From a bacterium (GTDB lineage: Bacteria > Patescibacteriota > Dojkabacteria > SC72): a stretch of DNA of 64,000 bases. Positions 2,938-23,461 of the stretch are shown here, piece after piece. How positions within the stretch are numbered: position 1 is the stretch's first letter; every line of letters begins with the position of its first letter. Below the pieces are notes generated by a model. That model did not search any database and had not been told where the DNA came from. It saw nothing but the letters and a program-made list of their open reading frames with translations. The position numbers were made by a program, and so were the translations under genes. Location of the stretch: contig JAIORF010000102.1 in assembly GCA_021108295.1 (NCBI GenBank), positions 226,681-290,680 of the forward strand. Direction: 5' to 3'.

Positions 2938-3618
2938 ATGATTAAGCTCACAGACATCACAAAGGTATATGGTAAGGGTTCTAATGCTTTTCAAGCACTA
3001 AGGGATATTGACTTAGAGATTGGTAAAGGGGAGTTTGTTGCCATTATGGGGGCTTCTGGTAGTGGTAAGTCTACCCTTATGAATATCCTTGGTGTACTAG
3101 ATACCCCTACTTCAGGACAGTATTTCTTTAATAGTGAGAGTGTTGAAGGGTTTAGGGATAGTAAATTGGCTGATTTTAGGAATATGACGGTTGGTTTTGT
3201 GTTTCAGCGATTTAATCTCTTAAACAATATGTCTGTATTTGAGAATGTCGCATTACCTGCTAGATATGCAGGGCTTAGGGATATTAAGAGTAAGGTTGCT
3301 GAGAGTTTAGGGACAGTTGGGATAGAGGATAAGCAGAAGAATATGGCTAATGAGTTGTCTGGTGGTGAGATGCAGAGGGTTGCTATGGCTAGGGCTCTCA
3401 TTATGTCTCCAAGCATAATTATGGCTGATGAGCCTACGGGTAATTTGGATAGTAAGACTGGTGTAGAGATTATGGAGTTAATAGCAGGATTGCATAGGAA
3501 GGGGCATACCATTATCTTAGTTACTCATGATAGGTATGTTGCTAATTATGCAGATCGTATTCTTGAGATAAAGGATGGTGTTATTGTTAAGGATTACGAA
3601 AGGAGTAAAGAATTATGA
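2938..3618 (+). CDS. ABC transporter ATP-binding protein (MacB/LolD-like)
   Basis: It has Walker A (GASGSGKST), the ABC signature (LSGGEMQRVAMARAL) and Walker B (IIMADEPTGNLD). Its stop overlaps the start of the downstream permease gene. Confidence 0.9.
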   Translation: MIKLTDITKVYGKGSNAFQALRDIDLEIGKGEFVAIMGASGSGKSTLMNILGVLDTPTSGQYFFNSESVEGFRDSKLADFRNMTVGFVFQRFNLLNNMSVFENVALPARYAGLRDIKSKVAESLGTVGIEDKQKNMANELSGGEMQRVAMARALIMSPSIIMADEPTGNLDSKTGVEIMELIAGLHRKGHTIILVTHDRYVANYADRILEIKDGVIVKDYERSKEL

Positions 3619-4895
3619 AAGAGGTAAAAAGATTTTTACAAAACATTCGGTTTTCACTTCAGGGTCTTGGTAGTAACAAGATGACTAGTTTTCTTACCTT
3701 ATTGGGTATTGTCATAGGTATTGGGTCTGTAATTGGTCTTATGAGTCTTGGTCAGGGTACACAGGAGAGTATTGTTAGTGATCTGGAGGATTTGGGTACG
3801 GATATTGTTACAATTAGTGCTGGAGCGAATATGTATGATAGTCCCGTTATGTCTGAGAACGCTGATGAGAAGGATTTCAATCAGGGTTTGCAAGAGAAGT
3901 ATAGTGTGGTTGATGAGAGTATCAAATTAACAATAGATGATTACAATTTCTTGGGTGAAGAAGGTATAGAGAATGTAAGGGATGTTTCTTTTACAATCAT
4001 TTCGTTGCAGGATATATATTTAGAGGATGAGGAGAGTGCAGAGTCTTACTCTGTAGTTGGTACCAATACTGATTTGTTTGATATTTATAACTTTGAGTGT
4101 GAGTCTGGTAGTGGGTTTGTACAGGCCGATATTGATGAGGGTAATCTTGTTGCTGTAGTTGGTTCTGAGGTTTTAGAGGAATATGTGGTGGGTGTAGGTG
4201 ATGTTCTTAATATTGGTGGTGTAGAGTTTGAGGTTGTGGGTGTTTTGGTTGAGCAGGAGGATTCTTTGTTGGGTAGTTCTCCTAGTGTAGAGATTTATAT
4301 TCCATTCTCCGTAGTTGATGAGATTGGTGGTGATTCAGATTCAGAGATTCTTACAAGGATTATTCTAAGGGTTGAGGATGATGGGGTGTTGGATCAAACC
4401 ATCTTGGATATTGAGGAGCGTTTGATGGAGTTTAGGGATGTAGAGGAGATGGATTTCTCTATTTTTAGTATTCAGACGTTGGTTGATAGGGTTAGGAGTA
4501 TTACAGAGACTTTTACTTTACTTCTTACTGGTATTGCTGCTATTTCACTTTTAGTTGGGGGTATTGGTATTTCCAATGTTATGTTAATTACTGTGTCTCA
4601 GAGGACTAGGGAGATTGGTATTCGTAAGGCTGTGGGTGGTAGGAGGAGTGATATTTTAGTTCAGTTTTTGTCAGAGGCAGTATTTCTTACATTGATTGGG
4701 GGTGTGGTTGGTATGGGGTTTGGTATATTGATTGGGGATTTAGCAGAGAGGTTTTTAGGTCTTAGTGCTGTTATTACATTAGATTCAGTAATTCTAGCAG
4801 TGGGTATTTCAGTGGGTATTGGTATATTGTTTGGTATATTACCTGCTAACAAAGCTAGTAGGTTAAGTCCAATAGAGGCGTTGAGGTATGAGTAG
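3615..4895 (+). CDS. ABC transporter permease, FtsX/MacB-type
   Basis: 426 aa with an N-terminal TM helix, a large periplasmic domain and a C-terminal cluster of TM helices with FtsX-like topology. It is translationally coupled to the upstream ATPase by a 4-bp overlap. Confidence 0.85.
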   Translation: MKEVKRFLQNIRFSLQGLGSNKMTSFLTLLGIVIGIGSVIGLMSLGQGTQESIVSDLEDLGTDIVTISAGANMYDSPVMSENADEKDFNQGLQEKYSVVDESIKLTIDDYNFLGEEGIENVRDVSFTIISLQDIYLEDEESAESYSVVGTNTDLFDIYNFECESGSGFVQADIDEGNLVAVVGSEVLEEYVVGVGDVLNIGGVEFEVVGVLVEQEDSLLGSSPSVEIYIPFSVVDEIGGDSDSEILTRIILRVEDDGVLDQTILDIEERLMEFRDVEEMDFSIFSIQTLVDRVRSITETFTLLLTGIAAISLLVGGIGISNVMLITVSQRTREIGIRKAVGGRRSDILVQFLSEAVFLTLIGGVVGMGFGILIGDLAERFLGLSAVITLDSVILAVGISVGIGILFGILPANKASRLSPIEALRYE

Positions 4896-4922: not shown

Positions 4923-5663
4923 ATGAACAAGAGAGTAGTAATTGGAAGTGTGGTAGTGATTGTGTTGTTGTTAGGAATATTTCTAATTGTTCGTTCTAGT
5001 GATGGGTTTAGTTTGTCTTCGTCTCCCAAGACTACTTCTAAGAGTGTAGGTATTGAGTTAGCTCAAGAGGGGTATATTTCTACTTGGGTATATAGTTCGG
5101 ATGATGGTAGTGTTCATATTAGGTTCTTACCAAATATTAATTTATCTTTAGTTAGTGAGGATTATTCAATTATTCCTACTTCAGTAGAGATTGTTAATGC
5201 TGGGTTTAGTAAAGCACCTAAGGTTGGTAGTTCTTTGAGGTTGTACCCTACTACTTTGTCTAGAGAGGAGACTTGTTTGGGTAATTATTACGAGGGTTGT
5301 GATAGTCCTCTTACAATGGAGGAGTTGGTAGATATGGGTGATAGTGGAACTTTTGTAGTGTCTGAGTCTCCTACTACCTATGGTGAGGTTCCTGAGTATT
5401 TGGGGTCTATTGATTTTTCTATTTATCTTCTTGATGTAGGTAGTTATGATCATGGTGTGATAATGGAGAGGGATGGTACTTTCGATAGTTCTAAGATGTT
5501 GGAGTATAGTGGTATTAGTCTTTCTGATCTTGATTGTACTATTGAGTTTGATGTTGTTGTTAAGCTTAGTGATGGTACACAGGTTAGTAAGCATTTTAAA
5601 GGGGATATTGAGGGTTCTTCTTTAGTAGAGATGTCTTATCAAGGGGAGTTGGGGGTGGAGTAG
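4923..5663 (+). CDS. hypothetical secreted or membrane-anchored protein, possibly ABC-associated
   Basis: 246 aa with an N-terminal TM or signal segment (VVIGSVVVIVLLLGIFLIV). It lies immediately downstream of the ABC pair on the same strand. It has no HlyD-like motifs. Confidence 0.45.
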   Translation: MNKRVVIGSVVVIVLLLGIFLIVRSSDGFSLSSSPKTTSKSVGIELAQEGYISTWVYSSDDGSVHIRFLPNINLSLVSEDYSIIPTSVEIVNAGFSKAPKVGSSLRLYPTTLSREETCLGNYYEGCDSPLTMEELVDMGDSGTFVVSESPTTYGEVPEYLGSIDFSIYLLDVGSYDHGVIMERDGTFDSSKMLEYSGISLSDLDCTIEFDVVVKLSDGTQVSKHFKGDIEGSSLVEMSYQGELGVE

Positions 5664-5709
5664 TGTTGCAAAGTTAGGGGGAGGAAGTCTGTTCTGAAGT
5701 GATTTGTTC

Positions 5710-6492
5710 TTACTCTATTAAATTACCATTTGCCAAGGTCGTTTCTAGTAAGGTTATAACTAGATAGGCCGATGCCATACCTACGAGTAACGGAATATTA
5801 TGCTTCATGCTTTTAGTAGAATGTGTTGTACGAACATTCCGGATTAATCTTGAATTATTAAGACCTCTGAAAAAATCTTTACTTAATCCTCCGAAGCTTA
5901 ATTTAAGCTTCCCGTCATTTTTTTCGTCAATAAGTATTTGTAACTGAGTTCCAATCTCCTTAGAAGCTAAGTCTGGATGTAAATTTAATATAGCACTAAG
6001 AAGAGAATTGGCATTTGAGCATAACCCTTCTGGAGATTTATCATCAAAGGAGGTTTGAAGTGCCTTGAGTAACGAATAAATATGGTTCAGTGAAGGTATT
6101 CTCCCTACTTCTTCAATAAGCCATTTGGGTACTAATTTATGATCCCCTTCTAATTGTTCAAGTCGTACTAACGCTGTACACTTCGCGATTTCTATAGGTA
6201 CAAAGATATGATTACTTAATAGCCCCTCTGTTTTCCCGTTTCTTATTGCTTGTGTCATTCTTTCTTTGTAATGCACAATATTCTTCTGATCATTACGAAC
6301 ATCGAATACAGCTAGAAAATCTTTAATAATGAAATCTGGTAATCCGATGTCTTTGAATAACATTCCTAGATTTGCAGACCACATCATAATCTCTTTTCTA
6401 TCAGGAAATGGTTCAGTTTTAAGATAATTTATCAGATAATTATCTATATTCTCAAGTTGCTCTTTATATCTTTGGATTTGTAATTTAGTCAT
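5710..6492 (-). CDS. hypothetical protein with a C-terminal TM helix and an Rx5H (HEPN-like) motif
   Basis: The ORF track extends to 6546. The likely start is MTKLQ at 6492, 2 nt after the stop of the upstream gene. There is a C-terminal hydrophobic helix (IPLLVGMASAYLVITLL). The RNVRTTH motif fits Rx4-6H. I cannot assign a family. Confidence 0.4.
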   Translation of the reverse strand: MTKLQIQRYKEQLENIDNYLINYLKTEPFPDRKEIMMWSANLGMLFKDIGLPDFIIKDFLAVFDVRNDQKNIVHYKERMTQAIRNGKTEGLLSNHIFVPIEIAKCTALVRLEQLEGDHKLVPKWLIEEVGRIPSLNHIYSLLKALQTSFDDKSPEGLCSNANSLLSAILNLHPDLASKEIGTQLQILIDEKNDGKLKLSFGGLSKDFFRGLNNSRLIRNVRTTHSTKSMKHNIPLLVGMASAYLVITLLETTLANGNLIE

Positions 6493-7036
6493 CAGATTCC
6501 TCTCCATCTTTGAAGTATTTATATGTTGAATCGCCCTTCTCGTCAAAAAGTATGTATATTCCTAATTGATAAGCAAAATCTCCATCCCTTTTTGTGAACA
6601 ATTTCAACTTTTCTATATCAAATTCTTCGGGATTAACTTCTTTATCTTTATCATCGATAGTAATCTTTAACGTTCCATTTGATTTGTTATTATCCTTCTT
6701 CACTTCGATTACTAACAAGTTTTCTTTTGTTCCTCTTTTGTGAATTATAATATCTGGGAAAACTGTTGAACCTTTCACGTCATTGAAAGGGACTTTATTT
6801 TCGGTTTTAATAAAGGGGAGTCTTTTAGGTGTTGGTTCACTTCCAAATCTATTGTATTCACAATCAATATGGAAGTAAGAAAAGGAGGTGTCTTTACTAA
6901 GTATTGTAGCTAATCGGTGAGATATTGTTCTTTCATTAACGTCAAGAGTAAAAAGATTGGATTCGTTTTTAAGCTCTTCACAAGCTCTTCGAACGGCATC
7001 TTTTATTTTTTCATCATCCATATTTAGTCCCTTCAT
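6485..7036 (-). CDS. small PD-(D/E)xK-like nuclease-fold protein (putative)
   Basis: 183 aa. It carries the motif FPDIIIHKRGTKENLLVIEVKK, which is a PD-x14-EVK arrangement typical of restriction-endonuclease-like folds. It is translationally coupled to the downstream gene. Confidence 0.4.
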   Translation of the reverse strand: MKGLNMDDEKIKDAVRRACEELKNESNLFTLDVNERTISHRLATILSKDTSFSYFHIDCEYNRFGSEPTPKRLPFIKTENKVPFNDVKGSTVFPDIIIHKRGTKENLLVIEVKKDNNKSNGTLKITIDDKDKEVNPEEFDIEKLKLFTKRDGDFAYQLGIYILFDEKGDSTYKYFKDGEESDD

Positions 7037-7468
7037 AGAGTAACTATATCAAGAATTTTGAAAATTTAACAGAGTTTGTATGTAATCCTGCTTTCTTTCT
7101 TCATAATGTCATTGAAAGGATGTAAAATATTCAAGAAGTTAAGGTAAGTAACCACTACCTTCTTATCATGCAGTTTAAGTTGGTCTAGTATGTCTATGAT
7201 ACAAGTGAAGATATAATGGGTTGTGTATATGTAATGATTTAACCTACTGATGACGATTGGTATATGGAACCCAATATTGTTTTGTTGAAGATGAAGACGA
7301 TGTCAATGATATTAAAAGTGGAGACAAGATAACTGTCCAAGGACAAGTAGAAGGATTTGATTTATTCAACATAGAGGTTGAAGAGTGTAATATTATATAA
7401 GTTCTACGGACTCTCTGGTGGGGGGAACTCTTCTCCCCATGGACAACTTTTTTGTAGTATAATCAGCT

Positions 7469-8203
7469 ATGCAAAAGAAATATGACAATATCCTTCTGAA
7501 AATTGGTATCGCTTTAGTGTGGAGTATCTGTCTTTATTTCTTTTTTTCCTATATATTTGACCTACTGGTAGAGAAACTTACGTTATCCCAAAGTTCTTTG
7601 ATAATTGATTCTCTCAAAGTTTTAATATCTTTTCCTACTGCTTTACTTATTGCAATACTCTTATTTAAAGAAGAAATCCGAGACCGAATCTTGAATATAA
7701 AATTTACCAAAGTAGGCAATATGGAAGCCGAATTTGGGAAGCAGGGGAAGGAAGTAAGCGAAGCTCAAGATCAAATAGAAAAAGAGACAAAGCACGAAGG
7801 CTTAGTAGTAAATGATGGGCAGATCCAGGTTTCCAAGGAAGCCTTAGAGAATATCGCAAAAGATTTTGATAGCAAGGATAATAAAATAAAAGAGTTTGTG
7901 GAGCTTGCAAGTATTCTCCAAATTCGGGCTCAAAAATTCGAGTTTGCATTTTTAAGCCAATATCTGGTTACTAATTCTCGATTAGCTATTCGTTGGTGCA
8001 AAAAAGAAAATCGTTTTAAGAAAAAAGACTTTTTAAACAACTATATTTTACCCGTGAAAGTTCGAAATGAAGGATTGGAAAAAGAGGTTATTTTTGATAC
8101 TTTAGTAGATGCGGGTCTTATTCAGAAGATTAAAAACGAAGATTTTACAATTTCTGTTAAGGGAGTTCGGTTCTTAGAATTCATTGGTTTGAAGGCACAG
8201 TAG
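7469..8203 (+). CDS. hypothetical membrane protein (2 N-terminal TM helices plus a charged, coiled cytoplasmic domain)
   Basis: 244-aa ORF. The TM segments lie around residues 10-30 and 45-66. The remainder is Lys/Glu-rich. I recognise no family. Confidence 0.4.
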   Translation: MQKKYDNILLKIGIALVWSICLYFFFSYIFDLLVEKLTLSQSSLIIDSLKVLISFPTALLIAILLFKEEIRDRILNIKFTKVGNMEAEFGKQGKEVSEAQDQIEKETKHEGLVVNDGQIQVSKEALENIAKDFDSKDNKIKEFVELASILQIRAQKFEFAFLSQYLVTNSRLAIRWCKKENRFKKKDFLNNYILPVKVRNEGLEKEVIFDTLVDAGLIQKIKNEDFTISVKGVRFLEFIGLKAQ

Positions 8204-8333
8204 ATGAAGAGTAATATATTACAGCTTCTTTCTAACTAAAGTTTGCTTCTCGAAGTTATGAGTTAATTTATGAACTAGGGAGGGGTATAAGCTTTAACGG
8301 TGTATATGGAGGAATGTTTATAAACATTGGTAT

Positions 8334-9122
8334 ATGATTACAAAAGAACTACATACACAAATTCAAAACTTAGATACTAAGTATTGGGATCGACGAGTGT
8401 CTTTTGCTTTTGATAAAATCAACACCTATAAAAAGCTTGCAAACAAATCTCCCTTCATCATAGATCTCTATACTTCATATTTACAGTTGATTGAGATATT
8501 CTTGCTAAACACATTGTCCTTATTGAAGTTGAGCTGGGTAATTGTGTTTATTAAAAATCACGAGTTAAGAGACTTAGTAAAAAAAACGTTTTATAAAGAT
8601 TATTCAAAAAAACGTTTTGATAGAGAACTTATATCCAATTTAATTAACAATCTAGTTCTTGGAAAGAAGGGTACTGTTAGGTTAAAAGATCGAAAGGGAA
8701 AACTATCTTCATATTCTATGTTTCTACAAGAAGTCATTACAGATTATTTAGCAGACTACGATTTGCTAAATGCTTTTAAACATGGATATAGGGTACAAGG
8801 ATCTGGTGAGAATAGTATCAGTATCACTCCAACAGGCTCAACCAAGTCTTTTATACTTAGTGAATTCACGGCATCAATTGTGTATCTTTCTAAGGAGAAG
8901 CAGACTATTTATGAAATGAGTGTTGCATTTAACTATGAAAGAATTTACTTAAAAAGCCAATACCTAATTAATATGTTAGAAAATATGAAGGAAATTGAAA
9001 GTGCAATTTATGGGAAAAGACCAATCACTACTTTGAATCATTTTATCATAACCGATAAGGCTAAAATAAGAAGTTCTTTTGGAGTTTCTAGATGGAAAAC
9101 TCCTAAATATGAAATTAATTAA
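8334..9122 (+). CDS. hypothetical protein (262 aa)
   Basis: Soluble ORF immediately upstream of tRNA-His. I recognise no motifs. Confidence 0.4.
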   Translation: MITKELHTQIQNLDTKYWDRRVSFAFDKINTYKKLANKSPFIIDLYTSYLQLIEIFLLNTLSLLKLSWVIVFIKNHELRDLVKKTFYKDYSKKRFDRELISNLINNLVLGKKGTVRLKDRKGKLSSYSMFLQEVITDYLADYDLLNAFKHGYRVQGSGENSISITPTGSTKSFILSEFTASIVYLSKEKQTIYEMSVAFNYERIYLKSQYLINMLENMKEIESAIYGKRPITTLNHFIITDKAKIRSSFGVSRWKTPKYEIN

Positions 9123-9168
9123 CAATGAAAGAATCACAGAAGGATATTTCGGACAGCGATTTAACACA

Positions 9169-9246
9169 TGGGGTGGATGATGGGGCTTGAACCCACAACC
9201 CTCGGTTCCACAAACCGATGCTCTAACCAGTTGAGCTACATCCACC
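9169..9246 (-). tRNA. tRNA-His (anticodon GTG) with encoded G-1 and CCA
   Basis: Reverse complement reads G-GTGGATG TA GCTC AACTGGTTA GAGC A TCGGT TTGTGGA ACCGA GGGTT GTGGG TTCAAGC CCCAT CATCCAC C CCA. This folds as a cloverleaf with anticodon GUG and an extra 5' G paired to C73. Confidence 0.8.
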
Positions 9247-9277
9247 ATAACCTGTCATTATATCACAAAAATATACC

Positions 9278-9735
9278 CTACTCCTTAAGATAATCTTCTA
9301 ATTCCTTCTCCCAACTAAGTAAACTCCTCTTACTAACATCAGACAACTTCATACCCAAAGCCTCCTCAAAAGACACCCACTTAAAATCTTGATGCTCAAA
9401 AGAAAGTCTTACCTTCTCTGTATCTGATTTATACAAACCAACTAACCTAATATATGGAATCCCCTTATATCTAGAAGAAGTAGCCATATCACTCATATAG
9501 GACACAAGAGGTCTTAAAGGATAAACAAATATACCAGCCTCTTCCATTACCTCCCTCTCTATTGCATCTCCTAGATCCTGACCAATATCAAGCTTACCAC
9601 CTGGGATTTCCCAAAGATTAGCCTCATGAACATCATCCTTACTTCTTTGTATTAGGAGTATCTTTGATTTAAAAAGAACAATAGCTCTTACTACGAGAAG
9701 AACTCTTGGTCTAGATTCAATAGCTTTATTCATAC
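9278..9735 (-). CDS. NUDIX hydrolase
   Basis: It has a NUDIX box, GGKLDIGQDLGDAIEREVMEEAGI (GX5EX7REUXEEXGU). The ORF track extends the N-terminus to 9991. The likely start is MNKAIES at 9735. Confidence 0.7.
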
Positions 9736-10600: not shown

Positions 10601-12382
10601 CTACTTCACAGTTACAGACTTAGCCAAATTCCTAGGCTTATCCACACTATTCCCTAAACTAAATGCTAAAAAGTAAGAAAGAAGTTGAAAAACAACCACA
10701 TTAGAAAGTGCAGACAATTCCTTACTCTTAACTACTGGTAAAAAGAAGTTAAAACACTCCTCTTTCCTAAACTTACTATCTCCTACCCCTACTGTATAAG
10801 CACCCCTTGCCCTTACCTCCTCTGTAGCAGAAAGCAAATCCTTACTACACATATCATCTGAAATAATGGTAAATACAGGAGTACCCTTCTCTATCAAAGC
10901 AATTACCCCATGCTTAAGCTCTCCTGCACTAAAACCCTCAAAATGTTTGTAAGAGATCTCCTTAATCTTAAGAGCACCCTCTAATGCAATGTATGAGTTC
11001 TGTTCCTTACCAAGTATGAAGAAGTGATTTCTATTCTTTATACTTCTTACTAACTTCTTAATATGATTAAATACCTTTTCTGTAAAATACTCTCTTAAAC
11101 CACTACTAAGGGACTCTACCTCTTCCCTAGCTCCTGTGTACTCTCCTACCATGCTTTTAGCTAGTAGATACCCAAATACACACTGAGAGGTGAAAACCTT
11201 TGTAGAGGCTACACAGATCTCAGGACCAGCATGGATTAAATAGGGTAAATCTGACATACGATGTATGGTAGAACCCTCTACGTTGATAATGCTGGCTATA
11301 GTACAACCCAACTCTTTAGCATACTCTAAAACTTCTATGGTATCTGCAGTCTCCCCACTCTGGGAAACAGCTATTATTAAATCATCTTTCTTAAGAATTG
11401 GAAAGTAAGAAGCAAAATCATACGGTCTTACATCTAATACATCTATATTTGAGATAGTTCTAAGGTAGTAAGCAATCTGTCCTGAAGCAAAACCAGCAGT
11501 ACCTGCTCCTGTTATGTATATACGTTTAGCTTTCTTAATTATATCTATCAGTGGTTTTAGATCATCTAGTTTATAATTAACTGCTTTAAGTATGGTATCT
11601 TGTTGTTCTAGAATCTCTTTGAGCATAAAATGGTCATATTTACCCTTAGAGATATCTTCTACCTTACTATTTAGTTTTGTAATTTTGTATTTCTTCTCCT
11701 TGCCAGTTTTAGAGTCGTATATTTTAAATTTGTTCCCCTTTATTTCTATTAAATCAAGATTGTCGAAAAATACCACATCTTTTGTATATTTAGTAAAAGC
11801 TAGTGCATCAGAAGCTAGGAAGAGTTCATCTTTTCCAATACCTAGGGCTAATGGAGAGCCGTTCTTAACGGCTATTATATGATTGTCTTCCTTACTGTCT
11901 AGTACAATGATGGTATTTCTTCCCTCAAGCATATTGAACGCTTTTCTTACACTGTCTCTAAAAGTTTCATCTTTTTTCGTTTGTTGTTCTATCAATCTGA
12001 CTATTACCTCTGTATCTGTTTGTGTTTTGAAGGTGTATTTTTTCTTTTCTAACATTTTCTTTAAGGTAGAGTAGTTTTCTACAATACCGTTTTGGGCTAG
12101 TATGAAGTCTTTGGTTGTAGAGATATGGGGGTGAGCATTGGTCATGGTGACTCCTCCGTGTGTTGCCCATCTGGTGTGTCCTATGGCGCATGAGGTTTTG
12201 GGTAGTGGTAGCATAGAGAGTTTTGTTTTTATTTCTCCTATTTCTTTGAATATTTTAATTTGGTTTTTGTCTTGTACTGCTATACCCCATGAGTCATAGC
12301 CTCTGTATTCGAGTGTTTTAAGCCCTTCTAGTACAATCTTAGATGAGTTTTGTTTACCGCTGTAGCCTACTATTCCGCACAT
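10601..12382 (-). CDS. glmS: glutamine--fructose-6-phosphate aminotransferase (isomerising)
   Basis: The N-terminus is MCGIVGY, which carries the N-terminal Cys nucleophile. It has a class-II glutaminase domain and two SIS domains with matching motifs (GHTRWATHG, SQSGETADT). The protein ends KPRNLAKSVTVK, similar to the canonical AKSVTVE C-terminus. Confidence 0.92.
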   Translation of the reverse strand: MCGIVGYSGKQNSSKIVLEGLKTLEYRGYDSWGIAVQDKNQIKIFKEIGEIKTKLSMLPLPKTSCAIGHTRWATHGGVTMTNAHPHISTTKDFILAQNGIVENYSTLKKMLEKKKYTFKTQTDTEVIVRLIEQQTKKDETFRDSVRKAFNMLEGRNTIIVLDSKEDNHIIAVKNGSPLALGIGKDELFLASDALAFTKYTKDVVFFDNLDLIEIKGNKFKIYDSKTGKEKKYKITKLNSKVEDISKGKYDHFMLKEILEQQDTILKAVNYKLDDLKPLIDIIKKAKRIYITGAGTAGFASGQIAYYLRTISNIDVLDVRPYDFASYFPILKKDDLIIAVSQSGETADTIEVLEYAKELGCTIASIINVEGSTIHRMSDLPYLIHAGPEICVASTKVFTSQCVFGYLLAKSMVGEYTGAREEVESLSSGLREYFTEKVFNHIKKLVRSIKNRNHFFILGKEQNSYIALEGALKIKEISYKHFEGFSAGELKHGVIALIEKGTPVFTIISDDMCSKDLLSATEEVRARGAYTVGVGDSKFRKEECFNFFLPVVKSKELSALSNVVVFQLLSYFLAFSLGNSVDKPRNLAKSVTVK

Positions 12383-12424
12383 ATGTATGTGTTTAATCAA
12401 GTTATTGTATATGGGGAAATTACT

Positions 12425-16384: not shown

Positions 16385-19300
16385 TTACTCTTCTTGCTTG
16401 TTACTTAGTATTACGTATGTTGTGGTAACACCTAGTGCAAGGATTATTAGTAGGATGTACCAGTATTTTTGCCAGAAGTTTCTCGTGTCAATTCCTGCTA
16501 TATCGAATTGTGTTTCGTCTTGGTCTTCTGATACTGTTACAGCGAGTACGTCTCCTATGTCAATGTTTTTAGGTAGGTTTTCTGAGTCTACAGAGATGTT
16601 GTAGTCTCCTGGGCATAGGTATGTTTCCCAGTAGCCGTTTTCGTCTGTAGTTATTTCTTTTACCGTAATTTCATTGTCGTTGTATGGTATGAAGATTTTG
16701 AGGGATATATTAGCTAGTGCTTTCTCATTGTCTTCTTTTTCACCATTTTTGTTTTTGTCTATGTACAGATATCCAAAGAGTTTCTTAGTTGTCTCGCAGC
16801 TGTTTATTCTGTCTAAGAGTCCTTGTATGTCGTCGTCACTACCTAGTACCTCGTCGTCTGGTACGTAGGAGTCTGCTAGGAGGGCATCTCCACTTCCTGT
16901 ACCGTCTGCATAGTATCTGTAGTCTCCTGTACCTGCTACATCTCCTTCTGGAGGGGCATCTACCGTTATATCGAAGCTGTCAGTTCCAATGTCTCCGTCT
17001 GTATCGATTACAGTTACTGTACATGTGTATGTCCCTTCTGTTGTAGGATCAAATGTTGTTGTATCTGTAGTTCCTGTGCAGTCATCGCTCCAGAGGTATG
17101 TGAATGGTGCGTTACCGTCAGTTAGAGTAGTTGTGAGTGTTATTGGGTCGTCTCCTTCTACTGCAGTGTTTGTACCTTGTATTGTAATTGTTGGTGCGTT
17201 GTTTGATACAGTGATCTCTATTGTGTAATCATCACATTCTCCTTCTCCTTGATCAACATCAGATTCACATACTTCAAATTGTGCAAAGTATGTTCCTTCA
17301 TTGATGTAGGTGTGTGCGAATGTGAGTGTTTCTCCTGGTATGTCTGTTGTATCATCAAAGCTTGCTGTTCCTTCTGGAAGGAAGGAGTATGTCCAAGGTG
17401 CATCATCTGCATGTTCTTCTCCACTAGCATATGTCATGTAGCTTGGGTCTGAGAATACAGCTTCGAAATTTATTGTTTCTCCTTCTGTGATAGCTATTGC
17501 ATCTGATGTGAAGGAGTCAATAATTGGAGCTACGTTAGTGATAGTGATGGTTAGTGTTTCTTCTGGACTTGGATTTCCTGCTAGGTCTTCTGCATGGTAT
17601 GTGATGGTGTATACTCCTTCTGGTATGTAGAAGGTGTCTATAGTTAGAATATCTTCGCCAAAGTATGCTAGGGCATATTCTTTGACTAAGTCAGAGATAT
17701 TTATAGTTTCTGATAAACCAGAGAGAGCTTTTGTATCAAAGAATGTACCTAGATCAACATTCGAAAGTTCATAGTGTACATTTTGAAGTCCGGTTTCATC
17801 TGTAACTTCAGCTAGTACATCTGGAATATTGTCTCCTTCTTCAAGGTCTAGGGTATCAATAATATCTTCTATCTCAGGTGGTGTGTCATCGTATGTTATT
17901 TGACAACTACCTTCTAAAGTTTCTGCTGATAAAGCCCATTCTGATATGTTTCCTGCTTTATCAATTGTTCTAACTGCAAATCCGTATGTTCCTTCATTTG
18001 GTGTCCAACTGCCATTGTATTCAAAGATTGATTCATCGAATCTTCTCTCGTCAATTCCTTGACTCCCATTTGGTGCGTTGAAGGATGAGTATTCGTAGTA
18101 ATCAAAGTTTGTATCTGTACTATCATCCCAATCTGGATGCATCCCTTGTATTGGTGAGTAGGCTCCACATTCGAAGACTATACTGTGATCTGAGCGTAGT
18201 AGTCTGCGTAAGCCAGATGGTGTGTCAGGTACAGTATTGTCTACAGTTATAGTTATTACATGCTCTGAATCTCCATCGAGTTCCCTATTTCCTGCTAGAT
18301 CTCTAGCTGCTAATCTGATTTGATATTCTCCATCAGGATATCCTGTTGTATCCCAAGTATAGATGACTGTTTCACCGAATTCAGGGCCATATACTGTTTC
18401 TTGCTCTAATCGTAGAGAGAAATCGTGTACATCTACTCCTCCTGGGTATATTGATATGTTGTAGTGACTTAGGTTTGTGTCTGTGACAAATCCGGAAATA
18501 TCTACCACTCCTTTTACAAAGTCATTATCAGCAGGATCTGTTATACCTACTACTGGAGCAATTGTGTCTACTACGAAGTGTAATCCTAAGACATCTCTAA
18601 ATTGATGTATAGAAGGAATATCTTTTCTGATAGCGTTGTCATATACATGGTGTGCCATGTAGTATTCTCCATCTTGGAGTGATGCTATACAGTTAGTAAA
18701 TTCTATCCTTTCTGATGTTTCATTGTATGTAACACCATTTAGATGTACTAAGTTTGGTTCACTTCTCCAACTGCAGTATGCTAGTTTTCCATCATTACTA
18801 AATCCAAAGCTTCCATCATCTTGTGCCTGAAAGATTACGAATGAATCTTTGAGTAATTCAGATGAAGGTAGATCGTCAGTGTATGATCCGGTGAATGTAA
18901 GTTGACCAATATTGTTTACAAATGTAATCGGATCTGTGACAACATCAATTTCTGCACCATCTTTATATTGTATATATGTTGCTCTTGGAGCTACAGTATC
19001 AACAAAGAGATCTTGTGTTATGGTTGTAGTATTTTCTGCATTGTCTGTTATAACTGCTGTAATAGTGTGTTGACCATCTGGAATGTCTATAGAAAATACT
19101 GATTCCCAAGCATTTCCTAATATTGTAGTTGTACTTGGTATTCCATCAATAGTTACTAAGACTGATGCTACTCCACTACGTTCGTCGTCTGCAAGTCCTT
19201 CTATTGTAGGAAGATCTTCGTTAATAATCCATTCAGTGATGTGATACACAGTTCCATTGTTTGAGTTAACCATCCTTATTGAATCAATACTTCCGGCAGG

Positions 19301-22300
19301 ATCTATTGAGTCCATAGTTATTTTTCTTGCATCGGCCCAGACTCCTACATTTCCTGCAAGGTCAACGCCTCTTACTTGCCAGTAGAATGTAATATTATCA
19401 TTGTGTACATCTCTATATTTTACAGTTCTAGTTGTTTCATATATCAGATCACAAAATCCTTCTGCTGTAGGATTGTTCCAACAGCTTCTGTAGTCATAGT
19501 GTTCAACATCTGTAGCATCAGTATCCCAAGTTTGTCTAACAATTGTGTCGTTTGTAAAGTAGTTATCAATTGGAGATGTTAATTCTACTATTGGAGGAGT
19601 TGTGTCAATTGTAATAGTTATATCAGTAGCTCTACTCCAATTTTTAGCTAGATCTCTACCTTGAGCTCTCAGACGATATACTCCATCTACTGCTGGATCA
19701 AAGGTGTAGCTGTAACTGGTGTCTTGAGAGTTATTGTTATATCCTGAGTTCCATGTTTCTCCTTCTAATTTCCATTTAAACCTAAAATTGTTCATGGTTT
19801 CATTTGTATGAGCACTTAGTAGGACTGGAGTATTGTGAAGACTGTCATCATCTGGTGTGTCCCAAGTTATAACAGCAGGTGTTGTATCTATATTAAATGG
19901 TCCGTAGTGTGCTGTAGAAGTGATGTTTCCTACATTGTCCATGGTTCTAATATTAAACCACCATTGTCCGTCTGTTAGTGCTGAACTTGTTACAGTGTTC
20001 TCACTTGCGTCTAGCCAGTTTGATGGATCAATAGCAGGGGTTTCTTCTGTGTTAGAGAAAGAGTAGTAATAACCTGCAATTCCACTTAATCCGTAATCAT
20101 CTGCTCCAGAGAAGGCTACTTCAATGGTATTGTCTTTTGAATATTCATCTACTTCATGACTTGAGCTAAATGTTGTAGGGTCCTGTGGGGCTTGCATATC
20201 CCATGTGAATGAGTCTGAGCGTCCAACCCCAGGTCTTATGTGTACTTGATCCCATGCATATGGAGTTACGGTATATTCTACTCCATTTCTAAATGTTGAA
20301 TATGGATATGGCCCTGGATAGGTCCACATATTAGTCCCTAGTACTCTATGGAAACTTCTTGGATTGATATATCTTGTCCAGTTCCAAAATCCTGGCATAT
20401 TGTTCCAGTAGTAATTATCTGTACCTCTTTGTATAGTGAGTTTTACAGATGAAATATCACTTACAGTATCATGTGCCTTTCCAATAATCTCTCCAAAGGG
20501 TACCCATGTTTGTGGACCATAGAAATCTTCTTGAACAAGGACTTTAACACTTGGGAGTTTTGCATCTACGGTTCTTCCTAATTGTGTACCCTCTCCAGTA
20601 TTCCCTGCATTATCAGTTACCCTGACATTGATAGATAAGGTTTCTGCATCTTGCAATCGTCCAATACGAAATGTACAGAATCTCCGGTGATAGTCTCCTG
20701 CGTACCAATTGATACCATCTAAAGTATATTCACATGATCTTCCATTTATCCCTGAAAGGGAGTCTTTAACTCTTGCACTTCCAGAGAAGCCTGTAAATCC
20801 ATTTACATATTTATCTACATAGTCCATAGTAAGATGTATTGTTCCTACTTTAGGTTCTGTAGTATCAAATGTGATATTTGTCATGACTGGACTCTGTTCT
20901 TCATTCCCTAGAGCATCAAATGCCGATGCCTTTATATCAAAAGTTCCATCTTGTACGGGTGTCCAAACGTATGACCAGTTAAAAGGTGTTGGACTAATAG
21001 ATACAGCTGGATTTAGTATCGTTGTTATTGGTTTCCATTCTGTTTCATGAGATGGTTTGTAGTAAAGATTTACACCTTTAACATGACTAAACTTGTCAAC
21101 TGAGTATCCAGATATTTTAATTGGAGAGTTAAATACTCCATTTGAGATATCTGGTCTAAATGTAGATACAGGAGCACTGTTATCAACAGTTAGCTCTACC
21201 CAATCTACAGAATCGTTTATTACCTCTGGATCACTTATTACAGGTGCTTCATTAGGGTCTTTATTCCCGGCTTTGTCTCTAGCTTCTAGCTTTATTGTAT
21301 ATACTCCATCATCCACTCCAGTGGTATCCCAATCAAATGTTGGTAATACAACAGGTCCATCATTATATACGGTTTGTGGACCAGCAATTGTTGTACCTAA
21401 AGCATCAACTACTACGAACCAGTAATGTGAAAGATTTAGGTCTGAAACTTCCCCTTCTATTGTTTGTAAACCTGCAACTATATTTCCATCGTCGTGTGAT
21501 GCTACTTCAACTTTTGGAGGAATACTGTCAAGTATTATCTGACAGCTACCTGCTAATGATTCTTCTGTTAAAGCCCATGCTGATGCATTTCCTGCTTCAT
21601 CAACTGCTCTTACTGCATATCCATACATCCCATCTGTAGGGGCTACCCAACTATTAACAAATTCTGAAGTGTAAAAGACCTCTTCGTCTAGTCCTTGGGC
21701 TCCACCAGGGTGGAAAGAGGAATATTCATAGTGACTTAAATCACCTTCTGGATTATTGTCCCAATCAGGGATTAATGCTTGTCTAGGAGAGTAGTCTCCA
21801 CAAGCGTAAATATCTCCATCATGATCTCTCCATTCTAGACCTATTGGTCTAGCTGGTGCTGTATTATCAACTGTAATCTTTACTTCGTCTGTTCTGGCCC
21901 AGTTCCCTGCAATATCTTTACCCGCTGCATAGAAGTAGTAATCTCCATCATCCATTACATAGCTAGGATCGCCTCCCCATCTTTCTGCATCTAGAGTGTT
22001 TAAGCTCCAATTAAAGACAGTTCCATTGTCATAAACATAATGATATCGTCTATCTGGTGAGACATTGGAGTAAGTTTGTCCTTCTGCTCTCCACCAGAAG
22101 TTAATGTAGTCTAAATCTTCAGTTCCAGTAGCTTGTAAATCTACAATGCCAGCGTGTAATGAATCAATTACTGGTGAGTCTAGTGTAATTGTTGGTCTTG
22201 TTCTATCATATGTAACTTTACAGTCATTACTCCAATCAGAAACAGCATCAACACTCTCGTCTAAAATGCTATTGCTATCTATATCTACCCAAGCTCTTAC

Positions 22301-23461
22301 TCTAGTATTCCATTCTCCCTCTGTTCCTTCTGAACTACCGAAAGATGAAAACGGAGTGTAATTATTTGTGTATGTACCTCCATCTGTTGTCCAAGTACCA
22401 CTTTCTGGCACCATCCATTCTCTTTGATACAAGACATTTGCTGGAGCATTTAGTAGCTCCCAGTTTTGTGAGATTCTCCCTCCATTTCCATAAGTTGGAT
22501 AGTCTCCATTTGTAGTTGAACCGCAAGCTAGATCTACTGGTCTTTCTCCTGGTGTAGCTGATTTAGACCTTATATTCCAACCAAGGTTTGTAGGTGCAAG
22601 GATACGTATTGTATCTTCAGTACCAGCAGCATCAACAGCCTCTTGTATTGTGTCATAGCAGTATGTATCACTTCCAACTAATTCTACCGTACAGGTAGCG
22701 TTTACTTCTGTAGTTCCCTCAGTTATTCCTGCAGGTATACTTGGTACCACTATATAGATTGTAAAATGATTTAACCCTTCTATCTCTACAATATCTCCTT
22801 CTATGCTCACCCCTTCTTCTATCTCTGTACCACCATCTAATAGGTCACTCCTACTCTCTGCGTACACAACATCTACATCATTTGATGTAGTAGGAAGTGT
22901 GAGATCATACTCATAAGTACCATCTACCATATCCGTAGTAATATCATAAGCAGTGTTTGAGATAGCACCAAGTACTTCTACTTCTTCCTGTGTAAGAATA
23001 ATTTCATTAATTGTTAGATAACCACTTTCTTCTGGTAATTGGGTAAAGGATAAAGAAACAGCACCATTTTGTGGTGCCATGTATACTTCTCCTAAAACCA
23101 CTACATCGCTTGTAGTGGAGCTACTTCCATTCTCTATCCAAATGGGTCCTGTAGATATCCCCTCGTCTAATATATCCTCTGATTCGTCAAGAGGAGGTAT
23201 GAGAGCATCTAATATGTCTACTGATTCTTCTAATGGGATTGTTCCAACAACATCCAATATCTCTTCTACTTCATCTGAAGGTAGAGTTTCAACTTCCTCT
23301 TCAACAAGAAGATTTTCAACAACCTCTGTGTGAGGTAATTGATCTATTTCCTCTGCAATTACAATCGCAGGGAAGAATACACTGGAAGTTAATATGGATA
23401 ATAGGAGCAGAACATTGGGAACCGAGGCAGATAATTTAATGATGGCTTTCTTAATTTTCAT
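16385..23461 (-). CDS. giant cell-surface protein (2358 aa) with Ig-like, PKD-like and Cna-B-like domains and a C-terminal TM anchor
   Basis: It has an N-terminal signal or TM segment. There are many about 100-aa Ig-like repeats with a recurring D-G-x-Y...A-x-D-x-AGN motif and ITVDNT(A/V)P linkers. Two about 120-aa paralogous inserts are present. A PKD-like segment reads NNAPTITIQG...FTYLWSDD. A Cna-B/SdrD-like domain reads GYLYIDKNKNGEKEDNEKALANISLKIF...DENGYWE. The C-terminal TM helix plus charged tail is YWYILLIILALGVTTTYVILSNKQEE. Confidence 0.8.
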   Translation of the reverse strand: MKIKKAIIKLSASVPNVLLLLSILTSSVFFPAIVIAEEIDQLPHTEVVENLLVEEEVETLPSDEVEEILDVVGTIPLEESVDILDALIPPLDESEDILDEGISTGPIWIENGSSSTTSDVVVLGEVYMAPQNGAVSLSFTQLPEESGYLTINEIILTQEEVEVLGAISNTAYDITTDMVDGTYEYDLTLPTTSNDVDVVYAESRSDLLDGGTEIEEGVSIEGDIVEIEGLNHFTIYIVVPSIPAGITEGTTEVNATCTVELVGSDTYCYDTIQEAVDAAGTEDTIRILAPTNLGWNIRSKSATPGERPVDLACGSTTNGDYPTYGNGGRISQNWELLNAPANVLYQREWMVPESGTWTTDGGTYTNNYTPFSSFGSSEGTEGEWNTRVRAWVDIDSNSILDESVDAVSDWSNDCKVTYDRTRPTITLDSPVIDSLHAGIVDLQATGTEDLDYINFWWRAEGQTYSNVSPDRRYHYVYDNGTVFNWSLNTLDAERWGGDPSYVMDDGDYYFYAAGKDIAGNWARTDEVKITVDNTAPARPIGLEWRDHDGDIYACGDYSPRQALIPDWDNNPEGDLSHYEYSSFHPGGAQGLDEEVFYTSEFVNSWVAPTDGMYGYAVRAVDEAGNASAWALTEESLAGSCQIILDSIPPKVEVASHDDGNIVAGLQTIEGEVSDLNLSHYWFVVVDALGTTIAGPQTVYNDGPVVLPTFDWDTTGVDDGVYTIKLEARDKAGNKDPNEAPVISDPEVINDSVDWVELTVDNSAPVSTFRPDISNGVFNSPIKISGYSVDKFSHVKGVNLYYKPSHETEWKPITTILNPAVSISPTPFNWSYVWTPVQDGTFDIKASAFDALGNEEQSPVMTNITFDTTEPKVGTIHLTMDYVDKYVNGFTGFSGSARVKDSLSGINGRSCEYTLDGINWYAGDYHRRFCTFRIGRLQDAETLSINVRVTDNAGNTGEGTQLGRTVDAKLPSVKVLVQEDFYGPQTWVPFGEIIGKAHDTVSDISSVKLTIQRGTDNYYWNNMPGFWNWTRYINPRSFHRVLGTNMWTYPGPYPYSTFRNGVEYTVTPYAWDQVHIRPGVGRSDSFTWDMQAPQDPTTFSSSHEVDEYSKDNTIEVAFSGADDYGLSGIAGYYYSFSNTEETPAIDPSNWLDASENTVTSSALTDGQWWFNIRTMDNVGNITSTAHYGPFNIDTTPAVITWDTPDDDSLHNTPVLLSAHTNETMNNFRFKWKLEGETWNSGYNNNSQDTSYSYTFDPAVDGVYRLRAQGRDLAKNWSRATDITITIDTTPPIVELTSPIDNYFTNDTIVRQTWDTDATDVEHYDYRSCWNNPTAEGFCDLIYETTRTVKYRDVHNDNITFYWQVRGVDLAGNVGVWADARKITMDSIDPAGSIDSIRMVNSNNGTVYHITEWIINEDLPTIEGLADDERSGVASVLVTIDGIPSTTTILGNAWESVFSIDIPDGQHTITAVITDNAENTTTITQDLFVDTVAPRATYIQYKDGAEIDVVTDPITFVNNIGQLTFTGSYTDDLPSSELLKDSFVIFQAQDDGSFGFSNDGKLAYCSWRSEPNLVHLNGVTYNETSERIEFTNCIASLQDGEYYMAHHVYDNAIRKDIPSIHQFRDVLGLHFVVDTIAPVVGITDPADNDFVKGVVDISGFVTDTNLSHYNISIYPGGVDVHDFSLRLEQETVYGPEFGETVIYTWDTTGYPDGEYQIRLAARDLAGNRELDGDSEHVITITVDNTVPDTPSGLRRLLRSDHSIVFECGAYSPIQGMHPDWDDSTDTNFDYYEYSSFNAPNGSQGIDERRFDESIFEYNGSWTPNEGTYGFAVRTIDKAGNISEWALSAETLEGSCQITYDDTPPEIEDIIDTLDLEEGDNIPDVLAEVTDETGLQNVHYELSNVDLGTFFDTKALSGLSETINISDLVKEYALAYFGEDILTIDTFYIPEGVYTITYHAEDLAGNPSPEETLTITITNVAPIIDSFTSDAIAITEGETINFEAVFSDPSYMTYASGEEHADDAPWTYSFLPEGTASFDDTTDIPGETLTFAHTYINEGTYFAQFEVCESDVDQGEGECDDYTIEITVSNNAPTITIQGTNTAVEGDDPITLTTTLTDGNAPFTYLWSDDCTGTTDTTTFDPTTEGTYTCTVTVIDTDGDIGTDSFDITVDAPPEGDVAGTGDYRYYADGTGSGDALLADSYVPDDEVLGSDDDIQGLLDRINSCETTKKLFGYLYIDKNKNGEKEDNEKALANISLKIFIPYNDNEITVKEITTDENGYWETYLCPGDYNISVDSENLPKNIDIGDVLAVTVSEDQDETQFDIAGIDTRNFWQKYWYILLIILALGVTTTYVILSNKQEE
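17867..18244 (-). repeat. intragenic repeat copy 2 (paralogue of the 21506-21871 domain)
   Basis: Same as copy 1. Coordinates were derived by counting residues and are approximate to within about 10 nt. Confidence 0.6.
21506..21871 (-). repeat. intragenic repeat copy 1 (about 120-aa domain, DNTAPARPIGLEW...GSCQIILDSIPPK) inside the giant protein gene
   Basis: Residues about 531-652 of the giant protein. They align along their full length with residues about 1740-1865 (DNTVPDTPSGLRR...GSCQITYDDTPPE), with conserved CG.YSP, PDWD, YYEYSSF, QG.DE, GTYG.AVR and AGN.S.WAL motifs. Confidence 0.6.

Follow-up and report, generated by a model that had tools for sequence, protein, structure and literature searches.

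Two overlapping minus-strand genes beside tRNA-His in a bacterial contig (JAIORF010000102.1; the window is the whole stretch of 64,000 nucleotides that we analyzed) form an operon, read from 7021 to 5710, that we interpret with moderate confidence as a translationally coupled two-gene abortive-infection module resembling PD-λ-3, in which a HEPN-like effector is joined to a partner similar to component A of that system. The interpretation builds on features that were demonstrated for the locus: the family of the first gene, the conservation of motifs in the two proteins, a helical model of the second protein, the overlap of the genes, and the restriction-modification and defense neighborhoods in which their homologues occur.

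Motifs and predicted structure of the minus-strand pair

The four open reading frames (ORFs) described in this region by an earlier, sequence-only reading were recovered where it had placed them (5710-6492 and 6485-7036 on the minus strand; 7469-8203 and 8334-9122 on the plus strand), and all are labelled as hypothetical proteins in GenBank (K8R14_03970-03985). Most public calls begin the upstream minus-strand gene at its second methionine codon, at 7021, which gives a protein of 178 aa, and an AAGGGA Shine-Dalgarno-like stretch lies ahead of this ATG. The two genes share ATGACTAA (minus strand), which holds the stop codon of the first and the start codon of the second, and another Shine-Dalgarno-like stretch, GGAGAGGA, is located 5-12 nt upstream of the second ATG. 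The genes had been described as translationally coupled across a 2-nt separation; the separation turned out to be an overlap of 8 nt, and this overlap, together with the internal Shine-Dalgarno-like stretch, keeps translational coupling of the pair plausible.

The product of the upstream gene matched the PADLOC model PD-Lambda-3_A (PDLC03986) over residues 12-120 with E=4.8e-24, so that the earlier statement that none of the four proteins belongs to a nameable family does not apply to it. It is also 44% identical (BLASTP E=4e-24) to component A of an operon on an Enterobacter plasmid (NZ_CP043384.1; locus L085, 4926-7684; fetched loci are denoted by L numbers throughout). This three-gene operon is genuine PD-λ-3; it extends over 2759 bp, as does the system cloned from Escherichia coli ECOR28 (Vassallo et al. 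2022). Its component A has 159 aa (PADLOC E=2.3e-100), component B is a Hypoth_Ymh/TIGR02391 HEPN protein of 267 aa (PADLOC E=1e-179) with RNPLAH near its C terminus, and component C, of 477 aa, carries Mrr_cat and a beta-propeller-like region. Searches of Pfam and NCBIfam with the window protein gave no match above noise. An alignment of 28 members of the A family has E30, R31, H35, D53, C54, E55, Y56, N57, R58, P89, D90, H94, E106, and K108 as invariant residues, every one of which is present in the window protein. The motif in this protein reads PD-x15-EVK, its P89-D90 and E106-x-K108 being invariant along with E30; the nuclease motif had thus been correctly noticed by the sequence-only reading, with a spacing given as 14 where we count 15 residues. 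By its residues the signature is of the PD-(D/E)xK type.

The second gene encodes a 260-aa protein with the sequence RNVRTTH at residues 218-224, as had been reported. A word-indexed search with this protein yielded a single non-self homologue, at 38% identity, whereas an exhaustive HMMER search gave 83 representatives, mostly of 250-280 aa. In an alignment of 60 sequences R218 is invariant and R215, N219, and H224 are each conserved in at least 90%, and the signature of the family can be written LNNSR-(L/I)-IRN-x4-H. The window protein has the Rx4-6H feature of HEPN domains, with a polar residue following the arginine. The family is without a covering Pfam model, the nearest approach being one member that touches Abi_2 at E=8e-4, and searches of PDB sequences with the single proteins and with family profiles returned nothing significant. 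The motifs of both minus-strand proteins, being invariant or nearly so across 28 and 60 homologues, exceed chance as judged from the alignments.

An AlphaFold (AF2) model of the 260-aa protein, built from the 60-sequence alignment, is all-helical, with a predicted local distance difference test score (pLDDT) of 89.6 and a predicted template modelling score (pTM) of 0.81. In this model a helix of residues 205-222 ends with R218-N219, H224 is found in the loop that follows, and the last helix comprises residues 235-255, so that RNx4H begins in the last part of the second-to-last helix and runs into the loop that leads to the last one. The Rx4-6H motif of HEPN domains, with its polar residue after the arginine, has been placed at the same point, the end of the second-to-last helix (Anantharaman 2013, PMC3710099). 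The last helix directly follows RNx4H, where HEPN domains have their helix 4, and is modelled with pLDDT >90. This is the segment that had been taken for a transmembrane helix of a membrane effector, an assignment that we do not retain: its Kyte-Doolittle value is borderline (1.74 in a 19-residue window), and in the model it is the terminal helix of the fold. A Foldseek search of the model against PDB and BFVD returned nothing significant. We therefore describe the protein as HEPN-like, the motif evidence being good and the fold evidence, from the model, only suggestive.

On the interpretation that we favor, the pair would constitute a free-standing, minimal, PD-λ-3-like module of abortive-infection or toxin-antitoxin-like character. 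The HEPN-like protein would be the effector, its predicted activity being that of a metal-independent endoribonuclease that halts translation once activated. The role of conserved partner would fall to the PD-Lambda-3_A-like protein, which may sense phage nucleic acid or restrain the effector until infection. Such toxin and sensor roles, the ribonuclease activity, and an anti-phage phenotype of the pair are what the motifs and contexts lead us to expect.

Gene neighborhoods and competing readings of the pair

The A family is patchily distributed across bacteria and archaea, where 467 species representatives out of 185,579 carry it. Among the 80 best loci, on which all neighborhood counts for this family are made, an immediate neighbor was HsdS in 16 and HsdM in 7, and genes for YhcG, DUF4411, Cap4-nuclease, and ORF6N proteins were occasional neighbors; homologues of PD-λ-3 component B or C were found in none of the 80. 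Given these Hsd neighbors, the varied nuclease partners, and the lack of B and C, component A is, as far as neighborhoods indicate, a portable module whose partners vary and which is often integrated into operons for type I restriction-modification. The homologue most similar to the window protein (62% identity; L113) is encoded between hsdM and a GIY-YIG/DUF4357 gene. The latter (L113, 2525-3391) encodes a 288-aa protein with DUF4357 and, faintly, GIY-YIG similarity and follows the A-like gene inside the type I operon, an arrangement which suggests that effectors are swapped beside the A module. A different context was seen in an alphaproteobacterial group, mostly Bradyrhizobium, in which the A-family gene adjoins a gene for a thiamine pyrophosphate (TPP)-dependent enzyme and not restriction-modification genes (upstream neighbors in L047, L056, L060, L064, L068, L070, L071, L073, L074, L076, L081, and L083); this context appears to be vertically inherited and does not look like defense.

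The context of the 260-aa family was assessed in seven informative loci, four of which show linkage to restriction-modification. The gene directly follows that of a 1015-aa type IIG enzyme in L004, directly follows hsdM upstream of hsdS in L087, and directly precedes hsdS and hsdR in L112; the order in L091 is hsdM, an 83-aa gene, the HEPN-like gene, a 128-aa gene, an A-family gene (E=6e-43), hsdS, DUF3644, and hsdR. Two further loci are without restriction-modification genes, and the seventh is the window itself, with its A-family partner. L091, where the A gene lies two genes downstream, is the one independent locus in which the two families co-occur. In L087 a 196-aa protein encoded directly downstream of the HEPN-like member (3157-3747) has an RNKFVH of its own near the C terminus; this hsdM-hsdS interval may thus contain two HEPN-like genes. 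We reject a housekeeping nuclease or regulator pair, given how patchily the families are distributed and how often restriction-modification genes adjoin them. The proposal of a defense module made from the sequence alone holds as a candidate for the minus-strand pair, with its nuclease-type and Rx4-6H proteins, and fails for the four genes together.

Several results weigh against the interpretation that we favor. The pairing of the two families is rare (2 of 7 HEPN-like contexts), and the RNx4H family was found in none of the 80 best A-family loci. The 260-aa protein gave no PADLOC match to PD-Lambda-3_B at E<=1 and nothing by BLASTP, and hhalign of its 60-sequence profile against PD-λ-3 component B returned a probability of 0.2. 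The third gene of PD-λ-3, encoding the 477-aa Mrr_cat protein, is absent from the window pair. For the upstream protein, the PD-(D/E)xK fold is predicted from its motifs and from a match of the VRR-NUC profile 4qbl over the PD...ExK stretch that is not significant (E=0.84). Finally, homologues of HsdM, HsdS, and HsdR were found nowhere in the 64-kb window; should the two proteins normally depend on an Hsd complex, they could be inert in this setting.

On a broader, tentative idea, the A family would be a widespread portable sensor or adaptor that plugs into type I complexes or is paired with interchangeable effector nucleases. Its partners would be the Hypoth_Ymh HEPN protein and Mrr in PD-λ-3, GIY-YIG/DUF4357 in L113, and the RNx4H family here and in L091. 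If this were true, the window operon would be the minimal free-standing form of the arrangement, and the RNx4H proteins a new HEPN effector family guarding restriction-modification systems.

The type I contexts could also point to decay. Since both families lie mostly between hsdM and hsdS/hsdR, and since the window has no Hsd genes and holds a gene remnant and a gene resembling mobile-element debris next to the pair, the two genes might be accessory cargo left behind by an operon for type I restriction-modification, in which both would normally act as "second-line" partners in physical contact with an Hsd complex, as PrrC does; with the Hsd genes lost, the pair would now be non-functional or decaying. 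We think this unlikely, because both ORFs are intact and keep all conserved residues, the 8-nt overlap and its Shine-Dalgarno-like stretch are retained, the arrangement is identical in several independent assemblies, and PD-λ-3 itself functions on a plasmid clone without Hsd genes.

A further alternative reverses the roles, making the small PD-(D/E)xK-type protein a DNase effector and the 260-aa protein a non-catalytic helical adaptor or tail-anchored membrane protein. An invariant R218 and near-invariant N219 and H224, with HEPN spacing and position, are hard to fit to a scaffold, and the confident modelling of the last helix (pLDDT >90) also goes against this alternative, which we consider improbable.

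The plus-strand genes and the flank of tRNA-His

The features of the region are collected in Table 1. The tRNA-His gene lies beside the ORFs as had been stated, and both ARAGORN and Rfam placed it on the minus strand. Of the four proteins as a set, none gave a match above noise in Pfam, NCBIfam, or PHROGs. Across 5600-9300, Rfam at a permissive threshold and a tandem-repeat search found the tRNA alone, and consensus promoter and terminator sites were not enriched in the block.

Table 1. Genes and other features in the interval flanking tRNA-His (window coordinates)
Feature	Position	Strand	Remarks
PD-Lambda-3_A-family gene, 178 aa	6485..7021	-	alternative start at 7036 gives 183 aa
RNx4H HEPN-like gene, 260 aa, predicted all-helical	5710..6492	-	small family without a Pfam model
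8-nt gene overlap, ATGACTAA	6485..6492	-	seen in the nucleotide sequence
Pseudogene fragment, from a tRNA_anti-like OB-fold gene	7254..7400	+	six-frame translation, Pfam
244-aa orphan gene	7469..8203	+	long charged region and, N-terminally, two hydrophobic helices
262-aa orphan gene	8334..9122	+	homologues confined to mobile-element backbones
tRNA-His(GTG)	9169..9245	-	ARAGORN and Rfam; 3' end toward the block

To place the region among relatives, metagenomes were scanned for GlmS homologues. This gave four relatives with GlmS 54-70% identical, which are distant, so that the comparison is not at strain level. Linkage of glmS to tRNA-His is retained in all four, while no two of them have the same content 3' of the tRNA, which includes a type III restriction-modification system (ResIII and N6_N4_Mtase) in L100 (4113-8266), a 419-aa VRR-NUC protein in L101 (3543-4802), and unknown genes with an SNase gene in L095. 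The genes past the 3' end of the tRNA are thus unrelated among these relatives. The flank of tRNA-His behaves as a variable cargo spot; it may also be a recurrent defense hotspot in the lineage. An att-like direct repeat of 9169-9245 was not found in the searched sequence, and none of the four ORFs has a Pfam match to an integrase. On the other side of the tRNA, glmS (10601-12400) is directly preceded by a glmS ribozyme/riboswitch (RF00234; 12415-12553, minus strand; 62 bits, E=6e-12), and a very long ORF (2358 aa; 16385-23461, minus strand) is located a few kilobases away.

Between the divergent pairs, the interval 7037-7468 had been described as free of genes and containing broken ORFs, and such a fragment was indeed found there. 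Its translation matched Pfam PF12869 at E=1.4e-4, slightly under the gathering score, over profile positions 104-140 of 146, a match which identifies it as what is left of the C-terminal part of a tRNA_anti-like OB-fold gene. The presence of the remnant between divergent genes is a sign of past rearrangement, as read from the sequence. A G-rich hairpin-like stretch (about 7419-7441) followed by a T-run is located downstream of it.

The 244-aa protein has, as earlier described, two N-terminal hydrophobic segments followed by a long charged region. It forms a singleton cluster in a collection of 15 billion proteins, it had no match beyond noise in Pfam, NCBIfam, PADLOC, PHROG, or PDB, and none homologous was found in the searched libraries, though no full homologue search was made. 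Its gene is absent from the loci that carry homologues of its neighbors. We regard it as a two-transmembrane orphan that is probably not part of the system formed by the pair. Within 7458-7471 this gene has a perfect TATAAT hexamer whose end is 5 nt from the ATG, and it has no Shine-Dalgarno sequence, which together suggest a leaderless or very short-leader mRNA.

The 262-aa protein had been called soluble; this description does not hold, as a single stretch around residues 52-74 is strongly hydrophobic. Three homologues were found, at 71-73% identity, all in mobile-element backbones (L092, 1-14532; L093, 1-9699; L094, 1-5606) that contain Replic_Relax, a 177-aa gene, the 262-aa homologue, DUF2958, small genes, and an XRE helix-turn-helix gene; an ArdC-like gene is present in L092 alone. 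The cargo of these backbones varies, with type I restriction-modification and AAA_13 in L092 and type III in L093, and the other three window genes are absent from all three loci. The gene is likely, on this sequence evidence, to have been left behind by an element that was formerly integrated at tRNA-His. Scans of viral contigs and tblastn searches of phages and plasmids with the 244-aa and 262-aa proteins gave no match. A similarity of the 262-aa protein to the 196-aa protein of L087 (E=0.015) was set aside as unsubstantiated, the four available homologues being too alike.

The sequence-only reading had taken 5710-9122 as one undescribed defense system, composed of a nuclease, an Rx5H membrane effector, a two-transmembrane protein, and a soluble protein. 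Adjacency of the genes in a variable tRNA-flanking spot and the same arrangement in other assemblies of the same organism would fit such a system, yet those assemblies hold the same sequence (100% identity) and do not amount to independent conservation, the supposed membrane helix comes last in the AF2 model, transcription of the two halves diverges from a 430-bp gap that contains the pseudogene remnant, and the genes do not co-occur, homologues of the pair being without the plus-strand genes in all of the more than 80 loci inspected and those of the 262-aa protein being without the other three genes in three; a single four-gene system is accordingly highly improbable, and we reject it. The interval is instead a mosaic accessory region 3' of tRNA-His in which the operon 7021→5710 is the single coherent unit.

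Comparison with PD-λ-3 and other HEPN systems

PD-λ-3 of E. coli ECOR28 is listed as "Nuclease, HEPN" (Vassallo et al. 2022, supplement). It acts by abortive infection, a phenotype known from E. coli alone; the searched literature, in which validation is limited to that species, offered no mechanism. Like PD-λ-3, the window pair opens with a homologue of component A, at the PADLOC score and identity given above, and continues directly, on the same strand, with the gene for a protein of about 260 aa with RNx(3-4)H approximately 40 residues from the C terminus. Unlike component B, this second protein shows no similarity to Hypoth_Ymh/TIGR02391 and belongs to a separate family. The next ORF beyond 5710 is convergent (4923-5663, 246 aa) and has no Mrr_cat match, and a phmmer search with component C matched L085 alone among the fetched loci. 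The genes of the window pair overlap by 8 nt, whereas those of PD-λ-3 are 21 nt apart, and the host is an uncultured low-GC bacterium as opposed to the enterobacterial plasmid of PD-λ-3. The pair therefore has the A component and neither B nor C, and is not to be classified as PD-λ-3.

Because half of the pair is a recognized PD-λ-3 component, the pair is not an entirely undescribed system either, as had been proposed; the family of the second protein was previously unannotated. The comparison provides several leads. Component A is far more widespread than full PD-λ-3 (467 species representatives), often in type I operons; it can pair with a different, previously unannotated HEPN-motif family; and there is a two-gene version that lacks the Mrr-like third gene. 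A pair this compact could help to dissect whether component A serves as sensor, antitoxin, or nuclease. With the RNx4H proteins, the set of restriction-modification-linked HEPN effectors grows by a further candidate family, a gain that is incremental and not a new principle.

HEPN/MNT and other toxin-antitoxin modules of two genes with a HEPN protein (for example SO_3166/SO_3165, PDB 5yep, 7ae2) differ from the window pair in that the partner here is not a nucleotidyltransferase, and the HEPN-like protein here is double their size and has an additional helical domain at its N terminus.

Among the HEPN "second-line" nucleases embedded in restriction-modification loci, the anticodon nuclease PrrC is encoded within the hsdMSR operon of EcoprrI (Anantharaman et al. 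2013, PMC3710099). In contrast to PrrC, the 260-aa protein has no ABC-ATPase N-terminal domain, the window has no restriction-modification genes, and the partner is a small PD-(D/E)xK-type protein and not an Hsd complex. Location inside an hsdMSR operon, which is lacking in the window, is found in the homologous loci L087, L091, L112, and L113. Like PrrC, members of the 260-aa family are embedded in restriction-modification loci, either within hsdM-hsdS-hsdR operons or immediately behind a type IIG enzyme, and they carry an Rx4-6H motif with its following polar residue. By analogy, the logic that we would expect the pair to share with PrrC is that of a latent RNase set free upon infection.

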